From an uncultured Dysosmobacter sp. (GTDB taxonomy: Bacteria > Bacillota > Clostridia > Oscillospirales > Oscillospiraceae), in the NCBI RefSeq assembly GCF_947631165.1, contig NZ_CANRKH010000001.1, forward strand, positions 146,395 to 210,394: a stretch of 64,000 nucleotides of DNA. Reading direction: 5' to 3'. This document shows, in pieces, positions 42,435-60,293 of the stretch (position 1 is its first letter; every line of letters begins with the position of its first letter). The translations under genes were made by a program, and so were the position numbers. Under the pieces are notes generated by a model that made no database searches, had not been told where the DNA came from, and worked only from the letters and a program-made list of their open reading frames with translations.

Positions 42435-42494
42435 CCCGACTCGGATATCTCAGGCGGCGGCTGTTTGTCAGGGCTGCTCCATGCCTCCGCCCAT

Positions 42495-42527: not shown

Positions 42528-42558
42528 TCCGTTTCTTGAACGATTACGCTTCAGAAGC

Positions 42559-44075: not shown

Positions 44076-44087
44076 ACATACCTTTGT

Positions 44088-45119
44088 TCAGCTTTTCCGT
44101 CCTGCGGCGCGGAGATCCGCCAGCGCCTGGTAAAAGGCGGCGGCATCCAGGTCCCCGTAAGCGGCCTCTGTCTCCACCACCGCCTGCTCCGCTCCCCGCT
44201 GCAGCATGTGATCGAAGTAATCCTCTGTCAGCGCCTCTGGATCCAGCGGAAGCCGCCGGAGGATGGAAAAGCCCTCTTCCGACTCCAAAATGCCGGAACA
44301 CTGCCCCTCCTCCAGCGCTTTGGCCGCATCCAAAAGCGTACCAGACCACAGCTTCTCTTCTGGCAGCAGCGTACGGGGACCGGCAGGATCGTCTCCCGCT
44401 GCCGCTAAATCACTGAACACAGCTGCCTGGTCTGTTGCGTCGTTGAGCTGGGCAAAAAGTTTGGCTGCCCGCTGCCGGGCGGCCTCCCTGTCTTCCCCGG
44501 CAGCCACCAAGATGCGGTCCACCGTCAAAACGCCCTGTTCCTCCCCATAGTGGATCAAGTCCTCCTGTTTCGGTGCCAAAGGGCTGTCCGCCTCACCGGA
44601 AAGGCCCCACAGCTTTCCGTACAGCAGTCCGACCCCAGCCAGCTCTTCTGCCCGTTGGCGGTCCAGGCCCAAAGACGCAAGATCTGCCAGATAAGCCGCC
44701 TCGCCGCCCCGCTCCGCCGCCTGTTCCTCCCATTGGGCGGTCAGAATCTCCTGATCCGGCTCTGCCAGCGTACAGCCGTACTTATCCGCCCAGTTTTCCA
44801 CGGTGGCATACAGGGCCGTGTCCGCCAGGGCCTGATCCTTGGCATAGTCCGCCAGCGTCCCGCCGGCAACGGCAGTCTGCCAGTCCAGGGTCCCGCCAGT
44901 CTCCTGATAACGATCCCGGATGCGGTCGCAGGTATAGGCCAGCCAATACAGATACCGCCACCCCGGCACCGCCCGGCCATCCACTGTCAGCAGCGTCTCC
45001 TCCTCGGAGATCTCTGCCGCCCGGCCTAAAATAGGGGACGGGCCTTCTTCCCGCTCCCCGCTGCAGGCGGTCAGGAGCAGGCACAGCAAAAAACACAGCG
45101 CGGCTGCCCGTAATTTCAT
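44088..45119 (-). CDS. PrsA/SurA-like lipoprotein (putative peptidyl-prolyl isomerase/foldase)
   Basis: Start at MKLRAAAL. Lipobox LLTAC. C-terminal ..GILESEEGFSILRRL resembles a PpiC-type rotamase core. Confidence 0.6.
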   Translation of the reverse strand: MKLRAAALCFLLCLLLTACSGEREEGPSPILGRAAEISEEETLLTVDGRAVPGWRYLYWLAYTCDRIRDRYQETGGTLDWQTAVAGGTLADYAKDQALADTALYATVENWADKYGCTLAEPDQEILTAQWEEQAAERGGEAAYLADLASLGLDRQRAEELAGVGLLYGKLWGLSGEADSPLAPKQEDLIHYGEEQGVLTVDRILVAAGEDREAARQRAAKLFAQLNDATDQAAVFSDLAAAGDDPAGPRTLLPEEKLWSGTLLDAAKALEEGQCSGILESEEGFSILRRLPLDPEALTEDYFDHMLQRGAEQAVVETEAAYGDLDAAAFYQALADLRAAGRKS

Positions 45120-45617
45120 CGCTTCCACTTCCTCTCCCCCAGGTCGTCCCTCCATGTATATGCAGGGGTGGAGAGATATAGAAGCACAGTGGTGTGATTT
45201 CCCATTTTAATCATAGAGTATTTCAAAATGGGATCATTTAAAAAGGAGTATCCAAAATCATTCGCAATGTATTTGAGCTGAGAGGACAGTTAGATCATGA
45301 AAACTTTCATCTCAATCTGTCATTTTCCCGCCGTTTGCACCGTTCTATCTCGCCGCATAACGCAAAGCGAAATGGCGTTTATTTACCTAAAAGGGGTACC
45401 ACTTGCCTATTACAGGCTGAACTGCAATAAATCTATCGGCAAGTATCTGCGCGGTTAGCAAACAGCGAACCATACCTACGTAAATTGTTCTGACTACCCG
45501 GCTTGGTTTGATAAGTCAGGTGGTCGACGCAGAATTCCGACCAGCAACTGTTCTCTTACACTCTTTTGACCCTTGATTAGCATTCATGTGGTAAATACAT
45601 GGATTCTAAAACCACCA

Positions 45618-46652
45618 CTATTTCCCTTTCGAAATATCTCGAACGCTATTTCCCTCGCTAAGAATAGGCGAAAAAACCACGTTCCGTTTTGGGTCGTCAG
45701 GTTTTCTAATTCGCTCCATCATTAGGTCGGCTGCTGCGGTTGCGATTGCTACATCATCAAGACAAACCGTAGTAAGTGCGAGTCCGCTTTTCTTTGGAGC
45801 GGGAAGATAGTCCGAGCAAATGATACTTAAATCTTGGGGTATTCGTTTTCCGCCGAGAACAAACGCATCAATGATGCCGGAAGCTAGGGTACTGTTCATA
45901 CAAAATACACCGGTTGCGGAATAATCCCCACGTAGAAAACGCAAAGCAAATTCGTAACCATCATCATAAGTGAAGTTAGTTGGAAGAATGTTGCAGTCAT
46001 TAATGACCATTCCATTCTCTTTATAGGCCTCTCGAATCCCCCAAATTCTATTGCGCGAGGTTGCAGATTCATAAGTGCCACTGAGAATCATGATATCAGT
46101 GTGGCCGTTTTTGATAAAGTGACTACCGCCTATCAATCCAGCAGTGAAATTGTCAATGCTTACGACGTCTAGATTTAGAGTATTAGGATAATGATTTATC
46201 AGCACAATGGGACAATTGGAGTTGCGAATATCATCGTTAAAATCCGAATAGCCGACATAGCTCAAAATAAATATGCCCAAAAATTCACTGTGAGTCAGTT
46301 TTTTCAGATAATACTCCATGGTGGACCGGCTGCCACAGCAGTCTAGGGTAAACACAACACATCCCAGTTCTTTGAAATATCGGGTTAATGTTTGTATATA
46401 TCGAACATGTGTTGCCTGTGCATAGCTTATGGAGAGGTCCAGGGATATGACTGCAACGGCCTTTGATCCAAAGAGGCTCGCATGTTTGGACTTATACCCC
46501 AATTTTCTGATAGCTTTATCGATTTCTAATCGTGCACCTTCGCTAACAGATCCTTTGTTGGTAATCGCACGAGAAATGGTGGACTTAGATAGGCCAGTTT
46601 CTTTAACAATATCATCAATAGTAACTTTCAATGTTTTTTTGCCCCTTTCCAA
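45618..46652 (-). CDS. LacI-family transcriptional regulator
   Basis: 344 aa. N-terminal HTH VTIDDIVKETGLSKSTISRAITNKG, then a periplasmic-binding-protein-like sensor domain. Confidence 0.85.
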   Translation of the reverse strand: MERGKKTLKVTIDDIVKETGLSKSTISRAITNKGSVSEGARLEIDKAIRKLGYKSKHASLFGSKAVAVISLDLSISYAQATHVRYIQTLTRYFKELGCVVFTLDCCGSRSTMEYYLKKLTHSEFLGIFILSYVGYSDFNDDIRNSNCPIVLINHYPNTLNLDVVSIDNFTAGLIGGSHFIKNGHTDIMILSGTYESATSRNRIWGIREAYKENGMVINDCNILPTNFTYDDGYEFALRFLRGDYSATGVFCMNSTLASGIIDAFVLGGKRIPQDLSIICSDYLPAPKKSGLALTTVCLDDVAIATAAADLMMERIRKPDDPKRNVVFSPILSEGNSVRDISKGK

Positions 46653-46701
46653 TTAATTAATTAATTCATTTTAGCATATATCCTATGGAATGGGAAGAGA
46701 C

Positions 46702-46893
46702 TGGGAAAAACATCATTAAATGGGAAAAAGGCCATTTGGTGGGAAAAATGTCAACAATACTTGGTTAATAACAACAATTTACATATCTAAACGATGTAAA
46801 TCCAACCAAAATAATAAAAAAGATTGACAATGCTTGGCAAATATGGCATAGTATAGAGGGAAAGATGTCAATTTAATATTGGGAAAAACATCA
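46702..46893 (+). repeat. Array of five same-orientation copies of a ~13-14-nt motif, (T)GGGAAARAYRTCA
   Basis: Copies at 46702-46715, 46721-46734 (degenerate), 46740-46753, 46858-46870 and 46880-46893. The first three are spaced 19 bp apart. Confidence 0.7.
46824..46852 (+). promoter_or_regulatory. Candidate promoter of the island's plus-strand operon
   Basis: TTGACA (46824-46829), 17-nt spacer, CATAGT (46847-46852). Two repeat copies lie just downstream. Confidence 0.45.
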
Positions 46894-46913
46894 ATAGGAA
46901 AGAGGGAAACGCT

Positions 46914-47723
46914 ATGGAGTATAAAGATATCCGAGTATATGATGCTGGGGACCAAGTATCGGTAATTGAACTGAACCACCCCGAAAAACTTAATGCACTG
47001 ACCGATTATACCTGGGAAGAAATTGTGGACGCTCTCAAGAAAATAGAGATGGATGACACAGTCAACGCCGTTCTATTCAAAGGCGCCGGAAAGTCGTTCT
47101 GCGCTGGATTTGACATCGGGGAATCCACAAAAAACGGAAACTCCGACGCATGGGGGCAGTGGCTGTCATTCAAACGTTCTGATGAGTGCCATAATTATTT
47201 GTGGGATTTCCCAAAACCGACTGTCTTCGCAGTACAAGGATATTGCCTGGGAGGCGGATTTGAGCTAGCAAGCTTGGGTGATTTTGTCGTCTGTTCCGAG
47301 GATGCCGTGTTTGGGGAGACAGAACTGCGTTTTTGCTTGACACCTGGAACACGAGATGTATTTCTACTGGGCCTTCGCAATGCAAAAGAAATTATGATGC
47401 TGGCAGAAAAGTTCAGCGCACAGGATGCCTTGCGGTTGGGTGTTGTCAGCAGAGTATTTCCTGTGGACAAGCTGGATACAGAAGCTTTGAAGATAGCGAA
47501 GAAGTTAGCAAAGATGCCTACGGAAACTATGCAGTTGACCAAGCATATGCTCAACAAAGTTACCGATATTCAAGGCATGAAAATTATGGGGTCCTGGTCA
47601 TGGGATACCTTCCTAGCGGCAAAGCTGATAGTTCCCAAAGTTCGTCAAGAATTCAATAAAATCGGCGAAGAGCAAGGCATGAAGGCTGCTTTCAAATGGT
47701 TGAATGATCGCTACGATGATTAA
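46914..47723 (+). CDS. Enoyl-CoA hydratase/isomerase (crotonase) family protein 1
   Basis: 269 aa with GAGKSFCAGFD, GYCLGGGFELA and FGETEL, so both catalytic-Glu positions are present. Confidence 0.85.
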   Translation: MEYKDIRVYDAGDQVSVIELNHPEKLNALTDYTWEEIVDALKKIEMDDTVNAVLFKGAGKSFCAGFDIGESTKNGNSDAWGQWLSFKRSDECHNYLWDFPKPTVFAVQGYCLGGGFELASLGDFVVCSEDAVFGETELRFCLTPGTRDVFLLGLRNAKEIMMLAEKFSAQDALRLGVVSRVFPVDKLDTEALKIAKKLAKMPTETMQLTKHMLNKVTDIQGMKIMGSWSWDTFLAAKLIVPKVRQEFNKIGEEQGMKAAFKWLNDRYDD

Positions 47724-47762
47724 TCACCGTAGTTATCATAAATAAAATGGAGGAAAAAGAAG

Positions 47763-49061
47763 ATGAAAAAGTTTCTAGTTATCATTTTGGCACTTTTCAT
47801 GCTAGTCAGTATGACCGCTTGTGGCAAAGCACCTGCGGGAGAACCTGTTGCTGAACCAGAGAAGCCGGCTGACGTTGCGTACAACACAGAAGTAGAACCC
47901 TTCAGGGTCGCTGTGTTTATCGCACTAACTGGCGCAAACGCAAACTCTGCTGTTTTCCAGATTCAGGCTCTTGACCTAGCTGTTGAGCAAATCAATAATC
48001 ATGGCGGCATTGAGGGTCTGGATGGTGCCCCCATCGAACTAGTGTATTGCGATAACATGAGCGATGCTAATGCAATGAAGACTGTTGTTGAAAACGCGCT
48101 GGAGGATGAGTCAATTAATTTTGCTATGTTCCCGCTGGCTTCTACCTATACCGCACCTGCAATCGCCACTCTGTCTAAGCTGCAGTGTCCCGCTTTGACC
48201 ACTTCTCAGGCTGACTCCATCTTTGATCAGGGTTGCGACTACATCTATGGTATTGCACAGGTTTCCTCTAAGGCCGCTGCTGTTACAACCCAGTTCGTTT
48301 CTTATCTGGCCGAAAAGTACGGCGTAGATACTTCCAGAATCGGCTGCGTCGCCGTTGACAATGATTATGGCCGTATGAACATGGAAACTTTTGAAAAAAG
48401 ATATAGTGCGATGGATGGCTATGAGCTGATTTACTCCGAAGCATATCCTGCAGATACTGCCGATATGTCCTCTATTGTTACTGCTCTGAAAAACAAGGAT
48501 GTCCAGCTGCTCCACTCCATCAATTTGGATCAGGATGGCAAATTGTTTTTTGCCACTATCAAAGGTATGAATTACAATCCCTTGGTTATCGGTGGTGGTT
48601 CCGGCATTATGTACCCCACTTTCATTGAGGCTTGCGGTCCTGTCCTGGAAGGGGTCCTGTCCGGCACTCATACCAACCCCAACGCTTCCAACACAGAAGA
48701 CGATGAGATGTTCCAGGAACTGAAAGCGATGTGCTACGATAAATATGGTCACTATGGCGGTGAGTTCTTGGTCTCTTACTACTCTCAAATGCAGGTGCTA
48801 CACCAGTTGCTGAACGAGACTAAGTCTTATGACCGTCAGGTCAACAACAAAGCCATGAAAGAACTGGAATTCCATACCCTGTTCCCGAAAATCGATGCTG
48901 ATGGCAACTACACAGATATCCAGTATTTCGATGAGAAGGGCACCAGCCCCAACTCTACCACTGAGATGGCTCAGTTTCAGTATGATGCCAATGGCGAACT
49001 GTGGCCTACCTGCGTATATCCTGAAGCCCTGGCATCTGCCGAGATTCAGTGGAACAGATAA
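47763..49061 (+). CDS. Liv-type (HAAT family, Peripla_BP_6-like) substrate-binding lipoprotein, ligand unknown
   Basis: 432 aa. Lipobox VSMTAC. Followed by LivHMGF-like genes. Confidence 0.8.
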   Translation: MKKFLVIILALFMLVSMTACGKAPAGEPVAEPEKPADVAYNTEVEPFRVAVFIALTGANANSAVFQIQALDLAVEQINNHGGIEGLDGAPIELVYCDNMSDANAMKTVVENALEDESINFAMFPLASTYTAPAIATLSKLQCPALTTSQADSIFDQGCDYIYGIAQVSSKAAAVTTQFVSYLAEKYGVDTSRIGCVAVDNDYGRMNMETFEKRYSAMDGYELIYSEAYPADTADMSSIVTALKNKDVQLLHSINLDQDGKLFFATIKGMNYNPLVIGGGSGIMYPTFIEACGPVLEGVLSGTHTNPNASNTEDDEMFQELKAMCYDKYGHYGGEFLVSYYSQMQVLHQLLNETKSYDRQVNNKAMKELEFHTLFPKIDADGNYTDIQYFDEKGTSPNSTTEMAQFQYDANGELWPTCVYPEALASAEIQWNR

Positions 49062-49099
49062 AGCAGTTTATCCGGTAAGATTATAGCAGGGGAAGGACC

Positions 49100-49497
49100 C
49101 TTCTCCCGCTATTTTCTAAGGAAGAGAGCTAAACAAAACCATCCAAAAGAAAAGCGGGGACGGGTCCGCAGATGAGACGGGGCGTAGACAAGCAAAAAGG
49201 CGTGCGCAGACCATCACTTTTTTCGAAAAGCCCTGCCATCCAGTTGCCGCTCTGGGCTGTGCGAAGTCCAGATACGTAAGCAGTTTGTCGTAGAACACAG
49301 CGGCACTTTAGGATGTAAACAGTGTCACGTCCCGAATAATTTCCTGTCGGTAGGTAGTGGCAATCCCTTTCTGGTAGAGTTTTCTCACAAGTCAATTTTA
49401 CCAGAAAGGGTCCCGCTTTCTACAATATTAGAGTGTCTTTATGGTTTTAGCCATGGCCGGAATCCCTTGTTATTATTGTAGCGCTTTGCCCATGGCT
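49100..49497 (-). mobile_element. Degenerate transposase-like repeat, copy A
   Basis: 49261-49497 aligns by eye at ~75% identity with 55862-56105. The minus-strand translation parallels copy B (..STRKGL..YRQEIIRDV..SAAVFYDKL..ADPS..) but carries stops and a 1-nt deletion. Confidence 0.65.
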
Positions 49498-49522
49498 ATC
49501 TAGGGGAATTTTGAGAGGTGAA

Positions 49523-50404
49523 ATGACGATGGGTTGGGCAATTTTTCAATCTTTGGTAAATGGCATACTTATGGGAGGTACATACGCGTTGCTTGCCGTC
49601 GGAACGACAATTATTTTTGGTGTCATGCGTATGATCAACTTTGCCAGCAGCGCATTCATCATGCTGGGAATGTACGTTGCATGGTGGGCATGCAATCTGT
49701 TTCATGCAGGCGTATACGTTACACTTCCGTTCTCTGTTTTGGTCTTGGCGATATTGGCCTACCTTAGCTTTAAGCTTGCAATTGAAAAGGTAATGTTTCG
49801 AGATGCAGCGTCAGTTATTATCGTTACAATCGGTTTGATGTACGTGTTGCAGAACATCACTCTTATGATATTTGGCACAACTCCTCTAAACATTTTCTCT
49901 GATTTACGTATGAAATTCTATACGGTTTTAGGCATTACCACTCAAGCAATTCGTCTGATTTCTTTTGGCACATCAGTACTGTTGACCGTTATACTGGCAC
50001 TTGTAATCAATAAAACTTCTTATGGCAGATGCATGCGTGCAACCTCAGAAAGTCAGGAGATCGCTCAGATTTTAGGTGTGAACGCAAAGTTTGTATTTAT
50101 CTCCGCATGGATTATTGGTATTGTGCTTACGGGCATCGCAGGAACAATCATGTCCCCGCTGTATAACATTACAATTGGCGTCGGCAGCATTTTTGGATCC
50201 ACAGCTCTTATTGCCATTGTCTTAGGCGGTATGGGTGATATCAGGGGCGCATTTATATCCGGTATCGCGCTGGGCATTGTAGAGGCATTAGTCAGCGTGT
50301 TCGTTGCTCCTGAGTTAGGTCAGTCCGCAACATTCATCTTGTTCCTGGTGGTTATGAGATTCAAACCTCAGGGCCTGTTTGGGAGGGGGGAGCGTGTAGC
50401 ATGA
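49523..50404 (+). CDS. HAAT-family ABC permease (LivH-like)
   Basis: Polytopic membrane protein with MRMINFAS. ATG at 49523 or 49529 follows GAGAGGTG. Confidence 0.85.
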   Translation: MTMGWAIFQSLVNGILMGGTYALLAVGTTIIFGVMRMINFASSAFIMLGMYVAWWACNLFHAGVYVTLPFSVLVLAILAYLSFKLAIEKVMFRDAASVIIVTIGLMYVLQNITLMIFGTTPLNIFSDLRMKFYTVLGITTQAIRLISFGTSVLLTVILALVINKTSYGRCMRATSESQEIAQILGVNAKFVFISAWIIGIVLTGIAGTIMSPLYNITIGVGSIFGSTALIAIVLGGMGDIRGAFISGIALGIVEALVSVFVAPELGQSATFILFLVVMRFKPQGLFGRGERVA

Positions 50405-51426
50405 TTAATGATACTCTGAAAGGGCAGTTTTTTAAGAAGAGCACATTATTTGTATTGATTCCTGTTTTTCTGGTTGCACTCCTACTTCCTATGGTATTTA
50501 ACTCATTTTACATTATGTCCGTGCTGATTAACTGCCTGTTGTTTGCCTCTATGGGGTATGCTTGGAACCTTATTTCCGGCTATGGTGGCATGGTCTCCAT
50601 CTGTCACGCAGGATTCATTGCAATTGGGGCATACACGTGTTTCTTGATGTATATCAATTTTGGCATATCTCCGATTTTGTCCATGCCAATCGGAATACTG
50701 ATCTGCTATATCTTTGCTACGATCATGGGTCGGATTACTCTGAAATACAGAGGGCCGTTCTTTTCAATCAGCACTATAGTGTTTATTGAATTGTTTAGAA
50801 CCATGTTAATGTATTTCAAAGATATCACTAATGGTTCTTCGGGACTGGTCATTCCTTATTCCGAACCAGACCCACTGAACCTGCTATTTCCGAATAACGT
50901 TCCGTATTATTACATTGCTTTGGTGGTATTGCTTCTTTGTATGCTTGTATGCTGGCTTTTTATCAACTCCAAATCTGGCTACTACCTGCGTACGATCAAG
51001 GGCGATCAAGATGCCGCAGAGTCCTTAGGCATTGACGCGATGAGGGTTAAACTTCGCTCCTTTCAGTTGAGTGCTGTTATGACATCCGTAATCGGCGCTG
51101 TGTATGCACTGTTCTTTACCTACATTGAGCCGGCCACCATCTGCTCCATGGATCTGTCTATCAAAATCTGCTCTATCGTAATTATTGGAGGTATAGGTAC
51201 TTTCTTTGGCCCTCTGATTGGTGCGTTTGTATTGATTCCCTTGAGTGAGGTGGCATTGAGAGTATTCCCTGATGGCGGTGCGCAATTGTTCTATGGACTA
51301 GGTCTGATTATCATTATCCTGGTGCTGCCAGGCGGCATTGAATCCTTGTTCTCTAAACATCTCATTCCATATATCAGGAAGAAGAAAACCCTTTGTAACA
51401 AGGACAAGGAGCGTGATGTATCATGA
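50401..51426 (+). CDS. HAAT-family ABC permease (LivM-like)
   Basis: 341-aa membrane protein. ATGA overlap with the upstream gene. Confidence 0.85.
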   Translation: MINDTLKGQFFKKSTLFVLIPVFLVALLLPMVFNSFYIMSVLINCLLFASMGYAWNLISGYGGMVSICHAGFIAIGAYTCFLMYINFGISPILSMPIGILICYIFATIMGRITLKYRGPFFSISTIVFIELFRTMLMYFKDITNGSSGLVIPYSEPDPLNLLFPNNVPYYYIALVVLLLCMLVCWLFINSKSGYYLRTIKGDQDAAESLGIDAMRVKLRSFQLSAVMTSVIGAVYALFFTYIEPATICSMDLSIKICSIVIIGGIGTFFGPLIGAFVLIPLSEVALRVFPDGGAQLFYGLGLIIIILVLPGGIESLFSKHLIPYIRKKKTLCNKDKERDVS

Positions 51427-52142
51427 GTGAGATTTTGACAATCAAGGATCTATCTATATCGTTTGGCGGAACAAAGGCAGTTCAACATCTCAGCTTTAAT
51501 GTAAATGAAGGCGAAATCTTGGGTATGATTGGCCCCAACGGTTCTGGCAAGTCCACCACAATCAATCTTATTACCGGCGTTTATAAAATGGATTCCGGTG
51601 AGATTTTCTTTGACGGGAAACCTATCACAAATAAGATGGACGTGAAAGATCGCGCACGTATGGGTCTGGGCAGAACGTTCCAAACGCCAAAGCCTTTCGG
51701 TCACATGACGGTCTATGATAATATTCTGGCGATTGCCTTGCAGAAGTACAACTTTAAAGAAGCAAGAGTGCACACGGAAGAGATCCTAAAAATCACTGAG
51801 TTAAATAGCGTTCGGGATTTGTTAGGAGCAAAGTTGCCTATTGAGCAACGCAAATGGTTGGATTTTGCAAGGACCTTGGCCACGGAACCTAAACTGGTAA
51901 TGATGGACGAGGCCTTGAGCGGCCTGAATATCACGGAAATGAACGAGAGTGTGGAAATGATAAGACGCATCAATAAGGAGCTGAACCTGACCATAATCTT
52001 TATTGAGCATGTGATGAAAGCAATAGTATCTCTGTGTGATAGAGTTCTGGTTTTGAACGAAGGCACATGGCTGGCAGAGGGCAAGCCAGAGGAAATTCTA
52101 GCAAAGTCCGAAGTCATTCAGGCGTACATAGGAGGAGAATGA
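51423..52142 (+). CDS. HAAT-family ABC ATP-binding protein (LivG-like)
   Basis: GPNGSGKST, GRTFQTPKPF and MMDEALSGLN motifs. 239 aa, without the insertion seen in the core livG. Confidence 0.88.
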   Translation: MSEILTIKDLSISFGGTKAVQHLSFNVNEGEILGMIGPNGSGKSTTINLITGVYKMDSGEIFFDGKPITNKMDVKDRARMGLGRTFQTPKPFGHMTVYDNILAIALQKYNFKEARVHTEEILKITELNSVRDLLGAKLPIEQRKWLDFARTLATEPKLVMMDEALSGLNITEMNESVEMIRRINKELNLTIIFIEHVMKAIVSLCDRVLVLNEGTWLAEGKPEEILAKSEVIQAYIGGE

Positions 52143-52852
52143 TGGGGGAGATTTTACGTATTGATAACCTATGTGCAGGCTATGGCGATTTGCAGGTGCT
52201 TTTTGACGTAAACCTGCATGTTAACGAGGGTGAGATTGTGTCTCTGGTTGGCTCAAACGGCGCAGGAAAAACAACGCTTCTGCGTTTGATCTCTGGCCTG
52301 GAGAAAATCAAGAGTGGTACCATTACCTATCGGGGAGAAGATCTTTCCAAGTATAAGCCTTATCAGCGTGCGTCTCTAGGTATTTCACATATTCCTCAAG
52401 GCAGAGGTATTCTCAGAAAGTTATCTGTCAAAGAAAACTTGGCGTTGGGTGGGCTAAATAAAAACGCTGCCAATGTCAACGAAAAAATTGAAGAGGCTTA
52501 TGTGAGATTCCCTATTCTGAAGGAGCGCCAAAATCAGGTAGCTGGTTCTCTGAGTGGCGGTGAGCAACAGATGCTGGCCATTTCCAGAGCATTGATTATG
52601 AATCCCAAGATTATTATCATGGATGAACCGTCTATGGGCCTTGCCCCCATCGTGGTGAAAGAGGTTTTCAATATCATTAAGAATCTTGCCGACAGCGGAT
52701 TGTCTATTTTGTTGATTGAGCAGAATCTTGTCCAGGCTTTGGGTGTTGCCCACCGCGGCTATGTCATTGAAACCGGACGCATTGTGATGGAAGGCGGCGG
52801 TAAAGAACTTCTTGCGCGAAAAGATATCCAGACTGCTTATCTGGGCATTTAA
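52139..52852 (+). CDS. HAAT-family ABC ATP-binding protein (LivF-like)
   Basis: Start at MMGEILRI overlaps the upstream stop. Motifs GSNGAGKTT, LSGGEQQMLAISRAL and IIMDEPSMGLAP. Confidence 0.88.
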   Translation: MMGEILRIDNLCAGYGDLQVLFDVNLHVNEGEIVSLVGSNGAGKTTLLRLISGLEKIKSGTITYRGEDLSKYKPYQRASLGISHIPQGRGILRKLSVKENLALGGLNKNAANVNEKIEEAYVRFPILKERQNQVAGSLSGGEQQMLAISRALIMNPKIIIMDEPSMGLAPIVVKEVFNIIKNLADSGLSILLIEQNLVQALGVAHRGYVIETGRIVMEGGGKELLARKDIQTAYLGI

Positions 52853-52955
52853 GGCATCCATTGACCAATCAATCATTCTGGGCTTTGCTATTAGAAAACG
52901 TGATTATATTTTAGACTCTGTGCTGAAAATGCCTCAAAAGAGCCATATTTTCAAT

Positions 52956-52989
52956 CCCCAAAGGCAGGTGGTTGCGTCTGCCTTTGGGG
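52956..52989. terminator. 12-bp stem-loop after the island ABC operon
   Basis: CCCCAAAGGCAG...CTGCCTTTGGGG, a perfect stem. There is no clear U-tract, so terminator function is uncertain. Confidence 0.45.
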
Positions 52990-53341
52990 CAAGCATAGCT
53001 CGATCACGCTTGCCAACCCATCTTATGGAATAATTTTGCCGATGATCTCCAGAAATTTTTCCTGCTTCGTTTTCTTCTTGGGTAGCTATACGCAATATTG
53101 TGATGCACAGTGAGCGAATCGGAGTTTTACTTGCCCTAGCTTTAATGAATTCATCACATCTGTTTCCTATCTGGCAGTGTGGGTTAAATCAAAGTCTCCT
53201 TCAGTATTTTTGCGGCTATTTGGGTTGCCTTTGCTTGCCAAGCCACAACTCCCAAATGAGCACTGGCTTAATATTGGTGCAAGAGGAGGATCATCTGCAA
53301 AACGGCTGCTCCTCTTCTGGTTAATCAGAATAGGAGGAAAT

Positions 53342-54346
53342 ATGTCAAAGTTTACAAATTGGCCGAAGGTGGAACTTCATCGCCACATTGAAGGCAGTAT
53401 GCGAGTGAATACTTATGTTGAGCTTGCCAGAAAAAACGGCGTTGAAATGCCTTCTTGGGAAAAAGATTTTATCCGGCGGGAGATCGAACTGAGAGAGGAT
53501 GCGCCTCGGGATTTCTCTGGTTTTATCCGCGCTTTTACCTATCTTCGTGCCGTGTTGAAAGATAAGGAAGCGTTCACCAGAATTATTATCGAATGCATTG
53601 AGGATGCGGCAAAAGAGAATATCAAATATCTGGAGCTGCGCTTTAATCCCGGGGCACTGGTGAAAAATGGGATTCCTTACGAAGATATCATTTCCTCAGT
53701 GCATGAAGGTGTTCGCTATGGAGAAGCGCATAACGATATCCGTATTGGTATGATCGGTATCATCGGCCGAGATATGCCTCCTGAACTGTGCGAAAAGGCG
53801 ACTGAATTTTGCGTCAAATATGCTCATAACGGCATTGACGGCATTGATTTGGCCGGAGCAGAAACCAATTCTCCGACACCATTTAAACCCTATTTCGATT
53901 GTGCAAGAAATGCCTCCCTGTTCGTGACAAACCATGCCGCAGAAATTTACGCACCCACCAACATTATCGAATCGATTGAACAGAATAACGCTATCCGCAT
54001 CGGACATGCAACACGGGTCATGCAATCTGCAGAGGCGCTTCAGTGCTTAAAGAATCACCAAGTATTGGTAGAGGGATGCTTGATAAGCAATATTTTTACT
54101 GGAGCAATTGATAAAATTGAGAACCACCCGTTGCACGAACTATACAAGATGGGAATTCCCGTTTTGATGAATACCGACGACCCTGCTGTTTTAGGAGAGA
54201 TTGCACTGGAAGATGAGTATCAGATTGCACAGGATGTACTGGGCTTTACAGACGAAGAGATTCAAAATACGATCATCAGAAGTCTTGATTACATTTTCAG
54301 ACCTGAATTAAAAAAAGAGTTACTTCCAAAATTTGTATTTTCGTAA
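53342..54346 (+). CDS. Adenosine/adenine-deaminase-family zinc amidohydrolase (substrate unknown)
   Basis: Start follows TAGGAGGAAAT. Motifs: ELHRHIEGS (HxH), GIDLAGAE, NHAAE (HAGE equivalent), RIGHA, EGCLISN and NTDDP. Confidence 0.8.
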   Translation: MSKFTNWPKVELHRHIEGSMRVNTYVELARKNGVEMPSWEKDFIRREIELREDAPRDFSGFIRAFTYLRAVLKDKEAFTRIIIECIEDAAKENIKYLELRFNPGALVKNGIPYEDIISSVHEGVRYGEAHNDIRIGMIGIIGRDMPPELCEKATEFCVKYAHNGIDGIDLAGAETNSPTPFKPYFDCARNASLFVTNHAAEIYAPTNIIESIEQNNAIRIGHATRVMQSAEALQCLKNHQVLVEGCLISNIFTGAIDKIENHPLHELYKMGIPVLMNTDDPAVLGEIALEDEYQIAQDVLGFTDEEIQNTIIRSLDYIFRPELKKELLPKFVFS

Positions 54347-54367
54347 CTCAACATGCTAGGAGGAACT

Positions 54368-55558
54368 ATGACAAAAGCATTAGAAGGAATTAGAGTTATT
54401 GATCTTGGGCGATATATTGCAGCGCCTTATGGCGCCATGATGATGGCGGACATGGGAGCGGATGTTATCCGCATAGATAAGCCCGGTGGAGAACCAGATC
54501 GTCGTCTGCGCCCCTTCGTTGAGGGGACCAGCATCTATGCACAGACATTTAATAGAAATAAACGATGCATAACCCTGAATTTGAGAACTGAGGAAGGCAA
54601 GCAATACCTGATTGAAATGATTAAGAAAGCGGATGTCCTTATTAATAATTTCAGGCCCGGTATCATGGACAGTATGGGCTTGTCCTTTGAAAAAATTCAG
54701 GAGTTAAACCCCAGAATGATCGTTGCCAGTATTTCCGGCTTTGGCCAGAAGGGTCCGTTAAAAGATCGGGCCGCATTTGACGGAATTCCCACTGCCATGG
54801 CAGGGGTTATGTATGAAAATTTTTCCTACGGCAAGGGTCCCAAACCTTTTGGTACGCCTGTGGCCGATGTAACTACTGCATACATCAATCTTATCGCTAT
54901 TCTCATGGCATTGTTGCAGAGAGAAAAAACCGGCAAGGGGCAATATATTGACACAGCAATGACGGACTGTATGGTACCCTATCTGGAATCCATGATCCCG
55001 ACATATTTTGTAAACGGCCCAACTCCAAATTTTGGGAAGCGCAACGGCGGCGACCCTACCTCTGCACCGGCCAATGTTTTCAAAGCCAGCGACGGCTACG
55101 TATATATTCATGCTGGTATTAGTGCACATTATATACTGCTGGCTGATATGATCGGTGATGAGCGGCTAAATCGGCCGGAGTACCGGGATCAAAATTACAG
55201 ACGCGACCACTTTGAAGAAGTAGAAGCTGTGGTAGGCGAATGGGTTGCAAAACATACTGCCAAGGAAGTGGAAGATGCGGTATCAGCTTTAGGAATTCCC
55301 ACTTCGAAGTTGAATACCATCGGCGATCTACTGGAGTCCGATTACGTGAAATCTCGCAATCAGATTATATGGATGGAGGTCCCTGGCATTGAGGGGAAGT
55401 ATCCTTTCCCAGGGAGCCCGCTAAAACTATCCGATTGCATGGTGGACACATATAAGTCATGCGGTGTAGCGGGTTGTGATAACGATGAGGTATTCAAAGA
55501 TATCTTCGGCCTGGACGAGGCGAAGATTGCGGAATTAAGAGAAAAAGGAATCATTTAA
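54368..55558 (+). CDS. Type III (CaiB/BaiF/Frc-family) CoA-transferase
   Basis: Start at MTKALEGIRVIDLGRYIAAPYGAMMMADMGADVIRIDKP follows AGGAGG. Contains ISGFGQKGP...AAFD, carrying the catalytic-Asp region. Confidence 0.85.
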   Translation: MTKALEGIRVIDLGRYIAAPYGAMMMADMGADVIRIDKPGGEPDRRLRPFVEGTSIYAQTFNRNKRCITLNLRTEEGKQYLIEMIKKADVLINNFRPGIMDSMGLSFEKIQELNPRMIVASISGFGQKGPLKDRAAFDGIPTAMAGVMYENFSYGKGPKPFGTPVADVTTAYINLIAILMALLQREKTGKGQYIDTAMTDCMVPYLESMIPTYFVNGPTPNFGKRNGGDPTSAPANVFKASDGYVYIHAGISAHYILLADMIGDERLNRPEYRDQNYRRDHFEEVEAVVGEWVAKHTAKEVEDAVSALGIPTSKLNTIGDLLESDYVKSRNQIIWMEVPGIEGKYPFPGSPLKLSDCMVDTYKSCGVAGCDNDEVFKDIFGLDEAKIAELREKGII

Positions 55559-55559
55559 T

Positions 55560-56105
55560 ATCGAGAGATGAGCAAAGCTGCCCAAAGGCACTCCTGCCCA
55601 GAAGCTTTAAATTGGGAGTCGTGGCATCCGCAGTCCGTGCGCGGAGCATAAGTCTACTTGAATCGGGGACATTCTCGGTCAATAGAAAGCCTGTAGTCAT
55701 CAGGAATCGTTTTGTATTGGATTCAGCCCCGGTTTTTCTTCCCATTGTTCCAGTTTTGTGGTACAGGGCACAGTCTGGGTCGGCTTTGGAGTGGTTTTCC
55801 GACTTGAACTTATCCCTGGAAAAGGATCTTGGATTGTTCTGTTTTGTGTTCGCGGCAACGAGCGTAGCGTTCAGACCGGTAAACAGCTTGCCGCAGAATA
55901 CTGCGGCACTTCGGGATGTGAACGGAATCACGTCCTGGATAATTTCCTGTCGGTAGATAGCGGCCAGTCCCTTTCTGGTTGAGTTTTTTCGCGAGTCAAT
56001 TTTACTAAAAAAGGTCCCGCTTTTCACAATGTGGAGTGAATTCCGGTTTTAGCCATGGCCGGGATCCCTTACTATTACTGTGTTTTTAGAGTTTTTCTCA
56101 TGGCT
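55560..56105 (-). mobile_element. Degenerate transposase-like repeat, copy B (158-codon ORF still open)
   Basis: Minus-strand ORF 55551..56027 reads ..LVAANTKQN....SKADPDCALYHK...TTGFLLTENVPDS. This resembles the region around the DPDA/first DDE block of IS5/IS1182-type transposases, but it is far too short. Confidence 0.55.
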
Positions 56106-56133
56106 GTTTAACATCTAATATCGGAGGGATACC

Positions 56134-57279
56134 ATGGATTTCGAATTGACAAAAGCGCAGGAGCAGTTCAGGAAAACGATACGCGGGTTCACAGAGAATG
56201 AAATCAGGCCGATAGCAGGTGCTGTGGATCGCTATGAAGCTACCGTCGACGACAACATAAAAAAGCTTGCCGCGTTGCATATCAACGGCATTGCCATCCC
56301 CGTCGAAGAGGGTGGCGCAGGTGGCGATCATGTCTGCTATGCTATTGCCTGCGAGGAAGTGGCCAAGGCATGTACGTCCACTGCAACCCTGGTGAGCGCT
56401 AAACTGGCTGGCCTTCTTATTGAGATGCTCTATTACTACGGCACTCCAGCGCAAAAGGAAAAATATCTTCAGCCCTTCTTGCAGGGTGAGTTGGAAGGGT
56501 GTTTCGGCCTAACTGAGCCGGAAGCGGGATCTGACCCCGGTCGTCTGTGTACTACGGCGATAAAAGATGGCAGCAACTATATCATTAATGGCACGAAGAC
56601 ATTTATCACCGGCGCCCCTCTGGCGGATTTTGCTATTGTGATGGCATCTACCAATAAGAGTTTGGGGACCAAAGGCATCACTGCATTCCTGGTTGACTGC
56701 GATACTCCAGGCTTCTCAAAAGGAAAACCGGAACAGAAGATGGGCCAGCGCGGCTTGCCTGTGGGCGAGTTGATCATGAAGAATGTCGTGGTTCCTGAAA
56801 CAGCAATTATTGGTAAAGAGGGCATGGGTTTTCGCTTGGCCATGAAATCTCTGGACTGTGGCCGTTTAGGCATTGCTTCTGTGGCACTTGGTATTGCTGA
56901 AGGCGCATATGAAGCAGCTGTGAAGTATTCCAAGGAGCGTGTTCAGTTTGGTGCACCGATTTGTAATAATCAGGCCATTCAGTTCATGTTGACTGATATG
57001 AAGATGCGTATTGATGCCGCACAATTGCTGGTATATCGGGCAGCCGTATCTAAGGATAAGGGTAGTTCATCGTTCCCCTTTGAGGCATCAATGGCAAAGG
57101 TATATGCATCTGAAGTAGCAATGTTTGTCACAACAAAAGCCGTTCAGATTCACGGAGGCTATGGTTACATGAATGACTATCCTGTAGAACGTATGATGCG
57201 TGATGCGAAGCTGACAGAAATTTACGAGGGCACCAGCGAAATCCAACGTATGGTTTTGGCTAGAACGATCTTAAAATAA
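56134..57279 (+). CDS. Butyryl-CoA-dehydrogenase-like acyl-CoA dehydrogenase
   Basis: 381 aa. MDFELTKAQE..., GLTEPEAGSD and C-terminal RDAKLTEIYEGTSEIQRMV closely parallel clostridial Bcd from memory. Confidence 0.88.
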   Translation: MDFELTKAQEQFRKTIRGFTENEIRPIAGAVDRYEATVDDNIKKLAALHINGIAIPVEEGGAGGDHVCYAIACEEVAKACTSTATLVSAKLAGLLIEMLYYYGTPAQKEKYLQPFLQGELEGCFGLTEPEAGSDPGRLCTTAIKDGSNYIINGTKTFITGAPLADFAIVMASTNKSLGTKGITAFLVDCDTPGFSKGKPEQKMGQRGLPVGELIMKNVVVPETAIIGKEGMGFRLAMKSLDCGRLGIASVALGIAEGAYEAAVKYSKERVQFGAPICNNQAIQFMLTDMKMRIDAAQLLVYRAAVSKDKGSSSFPFEASMAKVYASEVAMFVTTKAVQIHGGYGYMNDYPVERMMRDAKLTEIYEGTSEIQRMVLARTILK

Positions 57280-57297
57280 TATAGGGGTGGTTTGATT

Positions 57298-58104
57298 ATG
57301 AAATTAATAGTCTGCATCAAGCAAGTTCCTGATACGACGGAAGTTAAGCTTGATCCAAAAACCGGCACATTAATTCGTGACGGTGTTCCCAGTATCATTA
57401 ACCCCGATGATAGAGCCGCCCTTGAGGTAGCTCTGAAGATGAAGGATGCTAATTTAGGAACCACGGTCACTGTAATTTGCATGGGCCCAAAGCAGGCAGA
57501 TGCCGCGGTACGTGAAGCGTTGGCCATGGGTGCAGATAGTGCCATAATTGTCAGTGATCGTGCATTTGCGGGCAGTGATACCTGGGCGACAGCCAACGTT
57601 ATTTCCTCGGCAATTCAGAAGATTATGGATTATGACTTAGTGTTCTGTGGTCGTCAGGCGATCGATGGCGATACTGCGCAAGTTGGGCCTCAGATTGCCG
57701 AGCGCCTGAACATCCCTCAGGTAACCTATGCTAGGAGCGTCAAGGTTCTTGGAGATAGTCGTTATGAGGTGTGTCGTGAGTTGGACGACGAACAGCAGAT
57801 CGTCGAAGTAACAGGGCCGGCATTAATTACCGTTGTACATGGTTTGGAGCCGATTCGCTATCCCGATTTCAGACGTATTTTCCAAGCGTATAGTGGTGTA
57901 TTTGAGGTGCTCAACTGGTCTCAGGAAGAGCTGAAGATCGATGCCAACAAAATTGGCCTAAAGAGTTCTCCTACTAATGTAAAGTGTACTTTCCCGCCGG
58001 AACTGCGGAAGTCAGGTATTCGTCTGGAGGGTACCAATGAAGAAATGGTCAAGCAGCTATTTGATAATATGCTTGGCGAGCACATCTTGAAAAGGAGGGC
58101 TTGA
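57298..58104 (+). CDS. etfB: Electron transfer flavoprotein beta subunit
   Basis: MKLIVCIKQVPD... and GRQAIDGDTAQVGPQIAE. Confidence 0.9.
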   Translation: MKLIVCIKQVPDTTEVKLDPKTGTLIRDGVPSIINPDDRAALEVALKMKDANLGTTVTVICMGPKQADAAVREALAMGADSAIIVSDRAFAGSDTWATANVISSAIQKIMDYDLVFCGRQAIDGDTAQVGPQIAERLNIPQVTYARSVKVLGDSRYEVCRELDDEQQIVEVTGPALITVVHGLEPIRYPDFRRIFQAYSGVFEVLNWSQEELKIDANKIGLKSSPTNVKCTFPPELRKSGIRLEGTNEEMVKQLFDNMLGEHILKRRA

Positions 58105-58106
58105 GA

Positions 58107-59120
58107 ATGTCTATTGATATAAAACTTTGCAAAGACGTGTGGGTTTTTATTGAGATCAAAGATAAAAAAATTGAGAATACTTCGCTTGAATTATTGGGCG
58201 TTGGCAAAATGCTGGCTGCAGATCTAAAACAGAAACTGTGTGCAGTTGTTCTTGGCAAAGATGTGACTCAGTACACAAGTTTGCTGTTCTCATTTGGCGC
58301 AGACGTAGTTTATAACTGTGAACACGAACTGTTGGAGACATATACCACAGATGCTTTCACAAACGTTCTTGATGAGATTGTCAAAGAGAAAAAGCCTGAC
58401 ATTTTTCTCTTTGGTGCCACCAATGTGGGAAGGGATTTGGCACCTAGGTTGGCTGCACGGTTGAACACTGGCTTAACTGCGGACTGCACGGCACTATCCA
58501 TTGACCCTGAAAGCCGACTGCTACAACAGACACGCCCTGCCTTTGGTGGAAATATCATGGCAACCATCATCAATCCCACGCATCGTCCACAAATGGCCAC
58601 AGTTCGTCCCGGTGTTATGAATAAAATTGATCCCAAAGAGTGTTATGGCATTGTAGAAAACTATCCAGTCAAACTTCCTGCCGAAAATCTTCGTGTACAG
58701 ATAAAGAAGATCATCAAAAATATCTCCAAGAATGTGAATCTTGTGGATGCGGATATCATTGTATCTGGTGGTCGAGGCCTGGGTGGCCCTGAAGGATTTG
58801 AGCTTATCCAGCAGCTAGCCAATGCACTGGGCGGTGTCGTAGGCGCTTCCCGCGCAGCGGTGGACAGCGGATGGATTTCTAATGATCACCAGGTTGGTCA
58901 GACCGGAAAAACTGTCAAGCCTATGATTTATATAGCTTGCGGTATTTCTGGTGCCATTCAGCATCAAGCCGGCATGACAGGTAGCAAGTGTATCATTGCA
59001 ATTAACAAAAATCCGGATTGCTCAATGATGAAAATAGCAAACTACGCTTTGTGCGGAGATCTGTACGATATTATTCCATTAATGGTCAAGACCATTCAAG
59101 AACAAAATATTACGAAGTGA
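58107..59120 (+). CDS. etfA: Electron transfer flavoprotein alpha subunit
   Basis: ATG follows AAGGAGGG. C-terminal FAD domain: VSGGRGLG, GASRAAVDSGW, QVGQTGK.V.P..YIACGISGAIQH. Confidence 0.9.
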   Translation: MSIDIKLCKDVWVFIEIKDKKIENTSLELLGVGKMLAADLKQKLCAVVLGKDVTQYTSLLFSFGADVVYNCEHELLETYTTDAFTNVLDEIVKEKKPDIFLFGATNVGRDLAPRLAARLNTGLTADCTALSIDPESRLLQQTRPAFGGNIMATIINPTHRPQMATVRPGVMNKIDPKECYGIVENYPVKLPAENLRVQIKKIIKNISKNVNLVDADIIVSGGRGLGGPEGFELIQQLANALGGVVGASRAAVDSGWISNDHQVGQTGKTVKPMIYIACGISGAIQHQAGMTGSKCIIAINKNPDCSMMKIANYALCGDLYDIIPLMVKTIQEQNITK

Positions 59121-59131
59121 GGCAGGGCATT

Positions 59132-59944
59132 ATGGAATTTACACAAATTATTTATCAGAAAGAACAATTTGTTTCCACGATTATCCTTAACCGTCCTGAA
59201 AAGTTAAACGCATTGACCGATGTGATGTTGCGAGAAGTTAGAGAAGCGTTGAGAGATTCTGATGCAGATGACAACATCCGAGTCATTATTCTAAAGGGAG
59301 CAGGGCGTGCGTTCTCTGCCGGATTTGATCTGTCCCCTGAAGTCTCCACCTATTCTACCGCACAGGAATGGCGCGGGCATATTACCAATGGAAATGAAAC
59401 TTTCCGGACAATTTGGGAAATTGAGAAGCCCGTGATTGCCATGGTACAGGGCTATTGCCTAGGAGGGGCCTTCGATTTTACGATGTCCTGCGATATTGTT
59501 ATTTCCTCTGATAAGGGCGTATTTGGTGAACCAGAGAATTTATTTGGCGGGGTTCCTATGTATCTGTTGTTGCCATATATCACGAATATGCGCGTTGTTC
59601 GCAGAATTTTGCTGACCGGCGAGAACTTCTCAGCACAACAGGCGCTGGATTGGAATCTGATTTCCTATGTGGTACAGCATGACAGATTGGAGGAGGAAAC
59701 TCTGAAATTGGCCAAGCGTATCGCAGCCCTACCCTTTGGCACACCGCAATTGAATAAACGCACTCTGAATCGTATTTACGATAATATGGGCGCGAAGGAA
59801 GCCATTATGACAAGTGGCGACGCCGCAATTTGGGCATTGTCACGAGCCAAAGAGCCGGAATTGAGTGAGTTCTTTGAGAAAGTTAACACAATCGGAACAA
59901 AGGCTGCCCTCAAGTGGCGCAATGATAAATTCGAGCAGTTGTAA
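59132..59944 (+). CDS. Enoyl-CoA hydratase/isomerase (crotonase) family protein 2
   Basis: 270 aa with GAGRAFSAGFD, GYCLGGAFDF (Asp at the first catalytic-Glu position) and FGEPEN. The C-terminal tail is paralogous to crotonase 1. Confidence 0.85.
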   Translation: MEFTQIIYQKEQFVSTIILNRPEKLNALTDVMLREVREALRDSDADDNIRVIILKGAGRAFSAGFDLSPEVSTYSTAQEWRGHITNGNETFRTIWEIEKPVIAMVQGYCLGGAFDFTMSCDIVISSDKGVFGEPENLFGGVPMYLLLPYITNMRVVRRILLTGENFSAQQALDWNLISYVVQHDRLEEETLKLAKRIAALPFGTPQLNKRTLNRIYDNMGAKEAIMTSGDAAIWALSRAKEPELSEFFEKVNTIGTKAALKWRNDKFEQL

Positions 59945-59980
59945 TGTCATTTCCTAGAAATGAAGGAGTATGGGTGTTGC

Positions 59981-60061
59981 CCGTCCGGAGCGTCCACACT
60001 GTCAGCGTTCCGGAAGCGGGTCAGTGAGGTGGACATAGCGGCACTCCTGGAGACCATCGTA
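59981..60061 (+). mobile_element. Short transposase N-terminal (DUF772-like) fragment
   Basis: PSGASTLSAFRKRVSEVDIAALLETIV resembles the ..hsTLsrFRkRl....i..Lf..iv block of IS5/IS1182-type transposases. About 27 codons only. Confidence 0.4.
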
Positions 60062-60083
60062 TCGTTAAAAGTTGGGCCTGACG

Positions 60084-60139
60084 ACAAAAAGAAAAACTGG
60101 GCTGGGACAGTGTTTTCTCTGCCCAGTTTTTCTTTTTGT
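60084..60139. terminator. Perfect 19-bp hairpin at the right island border
   Basis: ACAAAAAGAAAAACTGGGC (60084-60102) pairs with GCCCAGTTTTTCTTTTTGT (60121-60139). The loop is 18 nt. Confidence 0.7.
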
Positions 60140-60293
60140 CAACAGGTCCATTATTATGCCTTATTCGGGAAAAACGACAAAGTATTGTGGAAATCTGTGA
60201 TGCAAGTGGGGTGCGAATAATTTGGGGATAACCTCTAAGAACATATCCGCCAAAGGCGGAACACAGCAATTCCCACCTCCTAATTCCTAGTTT

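Follow-up and report, generated by a model that had tools for sequence, protein, structure and literature searches.

Between mfd, the gene for the transcription-repair coupling factor, and a prsA-like gene for a PpiC-type lipoprotein, a 64,000-nt stretch of DNA from a Dysosmobacter sp. (the window, whose coordinates are used throughout) carries a low-GC block of about 15 kb. The block encodes a LacI-family regulator on the minus strand and, diverging from it, a 12-gene operon for an ABC transporter and a set of metabolic enzymes (Table 1). All 13 genes were assigned by Pfam/NCBIfam, and ~2.5 kb of the block is non-coding. Here we describe the composition of the block, its boundaries in relatives and in independent assemblies, the clusters related to it, and the possible routes by which it reached its present position.

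Table 1. Coordinates of the inserted block, its junctions, its cargo and the adjoining host genes
Feature	Position	Strand	Basis
Host prsA-like (PpiC-type) lipoprotein gene	44088..45119	-	Weak Pfam Rotamase_2; orthologs adjoin mfd in relatives
Left junction repeat ATTTCCCA, candidate target-site duplication or microhomology	45197..45204	+	Read from sequence; single copy (GGGAATTCCCA) in the L027 empty site
Inserted island, 15,063 bp, 45% GC	45205..60267	.	Change points; relatives' spacer alignment; junctions in L081 and L083
Left border segment, orphan, non-coding, 413 bp (53-codon open reading frame at 45297-45458)	45205..45617	.	No homolog but itself; no transposase remnant
LacI-family regulator gene, divergent from the operon	45618..46652	-	Pfam LacI and Peripla_BP_3; 42% identical to Saccharofermentanales cluster regulator
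lacI-ech1 divergent control region, candidate operators	46653..46913	.	Alignment with L092/L093
Crotonase-family enoyl-CoA hydratase/isomerase, ECH1	46914..47723	+	Pfam ECH_1, E = 2e-48
HAAT/Liv-type substrate-binding lipoprotein	47763..49061	+	Pfam Peripla_BP_6; 60% identical to the binding proteins of both distant cluster variants
Decayed IS5-family transposase remnant, residues ~5-94	49194..49457	-	tblastn with P0241/P0245/P0259, E = 1e-19 to 9e-21; homologs carry DUF772/DDE_Tnp_1
livH, livM (permeases), livG, livF (ATPases)	49511..52852	+	Pfam BPD_transp_2 (two), ABC_tran (two)
Decayed second IS5/InsH-type transposase, residues 8-66, frameshifted, with stop codons	52923..53099	-	tblastn, E = 4e-5
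Adenosine-deaminase-family amidohydrolase	53342..54346	+	Pfam A_deaminase, E = 3e-71
Family III (CaiB/BaiF) CoA-transferase	54368..55558	+	Pfam CoA_transf_3, E = 8e-100
Collapsed IS5-family transposase remnant, mosaic of residues 3-63, 144-182 and ~267-391	55579..56024	-	phmmer; Pfam on the matches; tblastn map
Acyl-CoA dehydrogenase	56134..57279	+	Pfam; best NCBIfam AcrC, below cut-off
EtfB	57292..58104	+	Pfam; best NCBIfam AcrB, below cut-off
EtfA	58101..59120	+	Pfam; best NCBIfam AcrA, below cut-off
Second crotonase, ECH2	59132..59944	+	Pfam ECH_1; 37% identical to ECH1; 70% to Saccharofermentanales ortholog
Right border segment, orphan, 323 bp	59945..60267	.	No homologs, no transposase similarity
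Long hairpin, 32 pairs, 20-bp perfect core	60073..60150	.	Repeat search; fold -52.8 kcal/mol, z = -7.84
Right junction repeat AATTCCCA	60268..60275	+	Read from sequence; aligned to L027
Host mfd	60294..63815	-	Pfam TRCF, CarD_TRCF_RID, UvrB_inter and helicase domains

A compositional break at both borders

The GC content of 1-kb sliding windows is 0.38-0.49 at 45-60 kb and 0.53-0.68 elsewhere in the 64 kb, the lowest window outside the block standing at 0.527. As a whole, the segment 45156-60293 has 45.0% GC between a left flank of 60.4% and a right flank of 64.3%, in a host genome of ~60% GC (Oscillospiraceae). Change points estimated by maximum likelihood lie at 45153 and 60306, no more than 13 bp from the limits (45160-60293) assigned to the block by an earlier reading of the bare sequence, hereafter the original prediction. 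Strand-symmetric tetranucleotide profiles of 5-kb windows correlate with the host profile at 0.93-0.97 on either side of the block, whereas the values within it are -0.05 to 0.18. GC content at third codon positions (GC3) is 0.39-0.52 across the 13 genes and 0.63-0.82 in the flanking open reading frames (ORFs) measured, namely the prsA-like gene (0.705), mfd (0.821) and a plus-strand ORF at 42481-43839 (0.627) that later proved to be the antisense shadow of a thiolase gene. Each of the three measures shows a sharp discontinuity at the island borders.

Gene function was controlled for with the Liv genes of the host itself (7467-11119, minus strand), whose GC3 is 0.80-0.88 as compared to 0.46-0.52 for the Liv genes of the island. 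The discontinuity is therefore real and sharp, and gene function does not account for it. The host Liv locus as a whole spans 7467-12467(-), and a host LacI gene lies at 21189-22307(-); the regulator and the complete Liv-type system in the block are thus each the second of their kind in the window, as had been claimed.

Long antisense shadow ORFs are common in high-GC DNA, and the left flank holds two plus-strand examples without a Pfam match. The ORF at 38601-42104 shadows an SLH/NAGPA-domain surface protein gene at 38958-41975(-), and the one at 42481-43839 shadows the thiolase gene at 42559-43902(-).

The mfd-prsA spacer in relatives and in independent assemblies

For the comparison of the locus, 80 species-level loci were retrieved by Mfd similarity and examined by tblastn. 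The closest of them (90% amino acid identity in Mfd) belongs to an uncultured rabbit Dysosmobacter; loci of Oscillibacter and other Dysosmobacter come next. A prsA-like gene lies on the same strand, 37-803 bp downstream of mfd, in 41 species (at ≤318 bp in 33 of them), and the next conserved gene after it is also in its expected place. The corresponding distance in the window is 15.1 kb. None of the island genes was found at the mfd-prsA locus in any of the 80 relatives' loci. The two genes are thus adjacent without the insert in 41 related species, in agreement with the expectation that a conserved junction had been split. Of the gene order given in the original prediction, pth-mfd-prsA-spoVT, the first three genes hold (pth is present in locus L081, described below); the gene following prsA is a thiolase gene (42559-43902, minus strand) and not spoVT.

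The native spacer of the relatives aligns to both sides of the insert. On the plus strand, native sequence reaches ...GTGATTTCCCA (45204) and resumes at AATTCCCACCTCC (60268), and the insert is therefore placed at 45205-60267. The prsA-like gene probably starts with the Met codon at 45119, a start that aligns with locus L027. Removal of the insert yields a reconstructed empty spacer of ~111 bp as compared to ~105 bp in L027. The motif TGGGAATT occurs singly in L027 and at both ends of the insert in the window. The resulting junction repeat, ATTTCCCA/AATTCCCA, is imperfect, with 7 of 8 positions matching, and is the only mark found at the junctions.

Abrupt composition shifts exactly at gene borders could also stem from mis-joins, and the window probably derives from a metagenome-assembled genome (MAG); a low-GC contig could in that case have been misjoined between two Dysosmobacter fragments during assembly or binning. 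Three independent assemblies from different samples speak against such a chimera. L081 (Logan ERR13984339) matches the window at 99.65% identity over 17.9 kb from LacI to pth, and holds the island together with mfd, pth and the right junction. L082 (DRR855142) is 100% identical over 2.7 kb. L083 (ENA ERZ27249596) spans the left junction with the thiolase, prsA-like, LacI and ECH1 genes, and has no single-nucleotide polymorphism in 2.66 kb of island, together with strain-specific indels of 46 bp and 18 bp in its host part. Moreover, each flank of the insert corresponds exactly to one half of a spacer that runs uninterrupted in relatives. Because three independent assemblies reproduce the junctions, the island is not regarded as a chimera; that explanation is essentially refuted and retains almost no probability. 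Relative to the window (43224-47869), the two host indels of L083 are one of 46 bp at 43858-43905 and, within the prsA-like gene, a deletion of 18 bp (44186-44203) that keeps the reading frame.

Between L081 and the window (46130-64000), 37 of 14,136 island positions differ (0.26%) as compared to 27 of 3,735 host positions (0.72%). The island is thus ~2.8-fold less diverged between strains than the adjacent host DNA (Fisher p = 1.4e-4), with only 3.7 kb of host sequence compared. This lower divergence is compatible with arrival or spread of the island after the strains began to diverge, with little host sequence behind the comparison.

The mfd-prsA junction appears to be a recurrent insertion site rather than an inviolable one, with at least three other Oscillospiraceae lineages carrying different genes there. 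The spacer holds a flavodiiron-type protein gene and a TetR regulator gene in L044 (13510-15760), two S41 peptidase (lipoprotein) genes in L037 (7710-10500), and a signal peptidase I gene in L031 (13535-14200), with the same ~0.8-kb gap in L030 and L032-35. None of the inserts in L044, L037 and L031 is a strong compositional outlier.

This variable occupancy shows that gene content at the site changes, and it lends something to the idea that the region is ancestral, was lost repeatedly in relatives, and owes its low GC to functional or expression constraints. We consider such a history very improbable. It would have to accommodate 41 species without the island, a GC3 of 0.80-0.88 in host Liv genes against 0.46-0.52 in their island counterparts, and a tetranucleotide correlation with the host near 0. 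In addition, no homolog above 51% (the CoA-transferase) was found in any other Oscillospiraceae, and the best full-cluster match lies in Saccharofermentanales. Taken together, synteny, composition and the independent assemblies support the claim of the original prediction, and the 15-kb block is very probably a horizontally acquired metabolic island inserted between mfd and the prsA-like gene of this Dysosmobacter/Oscillibacter species.

Related clusters, transposase remnants and the route of integration

Homologs of the island were sought among ~15 billion proteins, and those of the coenzyme A (CoA)-transferase among 5.8 billion protein clusters. The CoA-transferase returned an identical 396-aa protein (P0001) from an 'uncultured Dysosmobacter sp.' and then a match at 51%; ECH2 returned one match at 86% and then one at 70%. 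Both the 51% and the 70% matches belong to Saccharofermentanales MAG GCA_050951865.1 (L084/L092), which carries collinear orthologs of all 13 genes, the divergent LacI included, at 42-70% amino acid identity. Its cluster has 48.7% GC, equal to that of its genome and therefore of native composition. Compared with this cluster, the island has long spacers with insertion sequence (IS) remnants and an EtfA without the N-terminal ferredoxin (Fer4) domain of its ortholog; the corresponding Saccharofermentanales spacers are short (172, 24 and 37 bp) and free of IS remnants. In L092 (1-20578) the module occurs as two tandem copies that share 98.8% identity over 6.8 kb. The tandem arrangement recurs in three other assemblies (L093-L095), and clusters identical to that of Saccharofermentanales are present in JGI 3300060679 and 3300002898. 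An apparent circular permutation relative to the island, suggested by L084, was discarded: the longer L092 shows a collinear first copy followed by the tandem second.

A second variant (L085:567-13874 and L086-L088, ~60% GC) keeps the core of adenosine-deaminase-family enzyme, Liv transporter and crotonase, with CoA-transferase and crotonase, at 43-69% amino acid identity. It has a PFL-like glycyl-radical enzyme in place of the acyl-CoA dehydrogenase and EtfBA, and adds a CdaR-type regulator, a 3-hydroxyacyl-CoA dehydrogenase, a crotonase and a thiolase. The collinear Saccharofermentanales cluster and the L085-L088 variant together identify the module as a conserved, portable unit. In L085 the variant adjoins MobC/relaxase, phage replication and IS21 genes.

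A donor search, which had been proposed alongside the original prediction, did not identify a lineage: no close donor was found among the ~15 billion proteins, the nearest full cluster being that at 42-70%, and no plasmid or phage sequence matched the island by megablast. The donor itself belongs to a lineage of similar GC that has not been sampled. Of all island proteins, ECH2 has the closest non-self relative, at 86% amino acid identity, on a 1046-bp contig (L091, Logan ERR11637157) of 58% GC with the end of etfA upstream of ECH2 and 73% nucleotide identity. The GC content of this contig points to a closer relative of the module, itself barely sampled, in an organism of higher GC.

Pfam searches of the 13 island ORFs found no integrase, relaxase or phage genes, and ARAGORN found no tRNA in the 64 kb, as originally observed by eye; the island does not lie at a tRNA or tmRNA gene, and Rfam gave no credible match. 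Since all 13 ORFs are metabolic, transport or regulatory, the island does not qualify as an integrative and conjugative element, a mobilizable element or a prophage. No terminal inverted or direct repeats longer than the junction 8-mer stood above shuffled controls. The earlier remark that direct repeats are lacking is thus correct for anything longer, and is amended by the imperfect 8-bp duplication that brackets the insert. Neither border segment matched a plasmid by DNA or protein search or any protein homolog, and neither showed transposase similarity even at E = 0.05.

The right border segment contains a long hairpin, which had been described as a perfect 19-bp structure ending the island. 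The hairpin is real, with a core of 20 bp, and sits 127 bp inside the junction. As it lies after the last operon gene and faces the end of mfd, it is most simply read as a bidirectional terminator, and is probably one. A smaller hairpin with a T-rich tail is found at 60246-60260(-), also inside the insert.

Three operon spacers are unusually long (449, 489 and 575 bp). Neither the host flanks nor the 80 relatives contain copies of them, and two of the three share a ~205-nt repeat of 81% identity. A phmmer search with the minus-strand translation of 55554-56048 returned 81 proteins (best E = 4.7e-26) with DUF772 and DDE_Tnp_1 domains, the single named relative among the transposase matches being 'Oscillospiraceae bacterium 21-37'. 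The remnant at 52923-53099 has a 71.6% nucleotide match to the DUF772 N-terminal part of a Subdoligranulum IS5-family transposase gene and reads, with one frameshift, KKKTKQEKFLEIIGKIIP*DG...KGRRNHLPLGIENM; its transposase type differs from that of the other two remnants. Three degenerate transposase-like fragments had been predicted, and all three are confirmed as minus-strand and IS5-family, although only by sensitive searches: Pfam at E ≤ 10 on all stop-to-stop peptides detected no domain in the fragments themselves. The three spacers match the IS5-family elements (DUF772 and DDE_Tnp_1) of gut Oscillospiraceae at 40-65% amino acid identity over the fragments, whereas the island copies are frameshifted, internally deleted and only 180-450 bp long. 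No ends and no intact ORF are left, and thus no intact DDE transposase with terminal inverted repeats. The mobility genes typical of genomic islands are represented here by the remnants of three IS5-family transposases, with no intact mobility gene.

Both IS5-family element types also occur as decayed copies in Subdoligranulum variabile (L089:4001-4176, OY725848.1; L096:814-1652, OY725846.1), and one of these copies stands immediately upstream of an AraC-family gene. Neither record is annotated in the parts inspected. A ~215-nt repeat upstream of livH and the acyl-CoA dehydrogenase gene was at one time considered a portable promoter or leader. The points once in favor of this were the negative Rfam and Pfam results, substitutions without codon periodicity, a promoter-like TTTACC-N18-TACAAT and a TGTGA-N6-TCAC box in the repeat, and the repeat copy upstream of the AraC gene in Subdoligranulum. 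The 81 IS5-family transposase relatives (phmmer, tblastn) ruled this candidate out.

These remnants raise the question of a composite transposon, in which flanking IS5-family copies would have mobilized the module and generated the 8-bp duplication before the terminal elements were deleted. The three remnants inside the island, the imperfect direct repeat at the junctions and the orphan non-coding end segments of 413 and 323 bp all fit such an origin. The remnants, however, are internal and all lie in operon spacers, terminal elements are missing from border segments that lack transposase similarity even at E = 0.05, and terminal inverted repeats do not rise above shuffled controls. A composite transposon is therefore unlikely. 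In the history favored here, three IS5-family elements landed in the operon spacers in the past and then decayed.

Another route would be integration of a circularized module by illegitimate or microhomology recombination, or strain-to-strain spread by homologous recombination via the mfd and prsA flanks. Homologous recombination within a tandem duplication such as the 98.8% one of Saccharofermentanales can release one unit in circular form, and the flanking repeat seen here is what one crossover at an 8-bp microhomology would produce. That the island has diverged less between strains than the host flank is consistent with spread by recombination. Against this, neither the circular form nor the donor has been observed, the microhomology is read from sequence that has no donor counterpart, and the divergence comparison covers only 3.7 kb of host DNA. 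We regard this route as possible, though rather doubtful.

On the reading favored above, the ~15.06-kb island (45205-60267) was acquired horizontally and entered the spacer of ~110 bp that separates mfd from the prsA-like gene downstream, with no site-specific recombinase involved; the imperfect 8-bp target duplication is its sole scar. Insertion could have been a transposition-type event or the single crossover of a circular intermediate at microhomology, both of which leave an 8-bp repeat, and the data do not discriminate between them. The circularized unit could arise from a tandem duplication such as that in Saccharofermentanales, and later spread between strains may use homologous recombination through the conserved flanks.

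Cargo, predicted pathway and significance

The deaminase-family enzyme scores above the TIGR01430 equivalog cut-off (238.8 vs 216.55 bits), and the HxH, HAAE, GH and TDDP catalytic motifs are visible in its sequence; score and motifs alike predict a TIGR01430 adenosine deaminase. Each of the three cluster variants keeps an enzyme of this family linked to the transporter. The best NCBIfam models for the CoA-transferase are dicarboxylate CoA-transferases, below cut-off. The island acyl-CoA dehydrogenase, EtfB and EtfA resemble the clostridial AcrABC and butyryl-CoA dehydrogenase-EtfAB systems in scoring best on AcrC, AcrB and AcrA, and fall below the equivalog cut-offs of all three (468.5/640, 266.4/475 and 395.4/600 bits, respectively).

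The cai/fix (carnitine), car (caffeate) and acr (acrylate) operons follow the same logic as the island enzyme set. With E. coli caiTABCDE/fixABCX the island shares the families of a CoA-transferase (CaiB), a crotonase (CaiD), an acyl-CoA dehydrogenase (CaiA) and EtfBA-type FixAB, which suggests by analogy a cycle of CoA transfer, (de)hydration and flavin redox chemistry on an imported acid. The island differs in having a HAAT ABC transporter and not the BCCT antiporter CaiT, in lacking a CaiC ligase and FixCX, and in adding the adenosine-deaminase-family enzyme and a second crotonase. NCBIfam scores are also far below the Cai equivalog cut-offs (CaiB 150.2/413 bits; CaiA 192.5/540 bits). CarE of the caffeyl-CoA reductase CarCDE has an N-terminal ferredoxin domain, in which the Saccharofermentanales EtfA ortholog resembles it and the island EtfA does not.

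From the enzyme families, transport and catabolism may be envisaged as a series of steps. The LacI-family protein, divergently transcribed, would act as a repressor of the 12-gene operon. A carboxylate would be imported by the HAAT/Liv-type ABC transporter, an amidine-type amino group would be hydrolytically removed by the adenosine-deaminase-family enzyme, and the acid would be activated by the family III CoA-transferase. The thioester would then be processed by the two crotonases and an Acr/Bcd-like acyl-CoA dehydrogenase coupled to EtfAB, with (de)hydration or ring hydrolysis at the crotonase step followed by oxidation or reduction linked to flavin and electron transfer flavoprotein. The lacI-ech1 control region carries a ATTTACAT-N9-ATGTAAAT palindrome and two copies of a GGGAAAAACATCA motif (46700-46890), shares a motif with the Saccharofermentanales clusters, and could be the location of operator sites. 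Downstream of lacI (45477-45499) there is a further, related copy, ACAATTTAC(G/A)T.

A literature search returned no described pathway with this set of deaminase, CoA-transferase, crotonase and acyl-CoA dehydrogenase-Etf genes, nor a relevant Dysosmobacter island. We tentatively propose that the cargo may be an uncharacterized catabolic or respiratory pathway in which a deaminase-family hydrolase is obligately coupled to a HAAT importer, a CoA-transferase and two crotonases. Its core would be shared by at least three lineages (42-70% amino acid identity) and completed by either acyl-CoA dehydrogenase-EtfAB or a glycyl-radical enzyme. The substrate might be a metabolite of the gut or of anaerobic digesters for which no breakdown through CoA thioesters is known so far, such as an amino-substituted heterocyclic or dicarboxylic acid, and the module might travel among distant Clostridia as a unit of ~13 kb that has no mobility genes dedicated to it.

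Several points weigh against reading the block as an acquired island with this history and function. A conspecific empty site was not recovered by protein look-ups or by a metagenome scan with the PrsA-like protein: the scan yielded a single locus at 61% identity, and exact-protein look-ups of PrsA-like, Mfd and the 401-aa CoA-transferase ORF gave no match. The 8-bp repeat is imperfect, its junction is placed by relatives whose Mfd is at most 90% identical, and it may have arisen by chance. An integrase, a relaxase, a tRNA and a terminal inverted repeat are all absent from the island, and its IS remnants are internal and not terminal. No donor was found, the best non-self matches being the CoA-transferase at 51% and the ECH2 at 86% on a 1-kb contig of 58% GC. 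The predicted pathway draws on family-level similarity, with NCBIfam equivalogs below cut-off except for adenosine deaminase.

The island is genuine, and as an instance of horizontal gene transfer it is typical, a textbook genomic island. Known catabolic genomic islands likewise show a sharp shift in GC, GC3 and tetranucleotide usage, absence from the syntenic sites of relatives, IS debris, and a self-contained cargo of regulator, transporter and pathway. They differ from the present case, which has no integrase, tRNA target, long att-like repeats or conjugation/mobilization genes, and in which the target is a ~110-bp spacer between protein genes. It adds an example of the recombinase-free insertion of a complete regulator-transporter-pathway module into such a spacer in an uncultured gut Oscillospiraceae, at an mfd-prsA spacer that has been hit independently in other lineages. 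The island itself is ordinary; its more novel aspects are the uncharacterized deaminase/CoA pathway and the donor, a lineage considered unsampled because no whole-cluster relative closer than 42-70% was found in the proteins searched. If the substrate of the deaminase/CoA pathway were found, a new route by which gut and digester communities turn over metabolites anaerobically could come to light.

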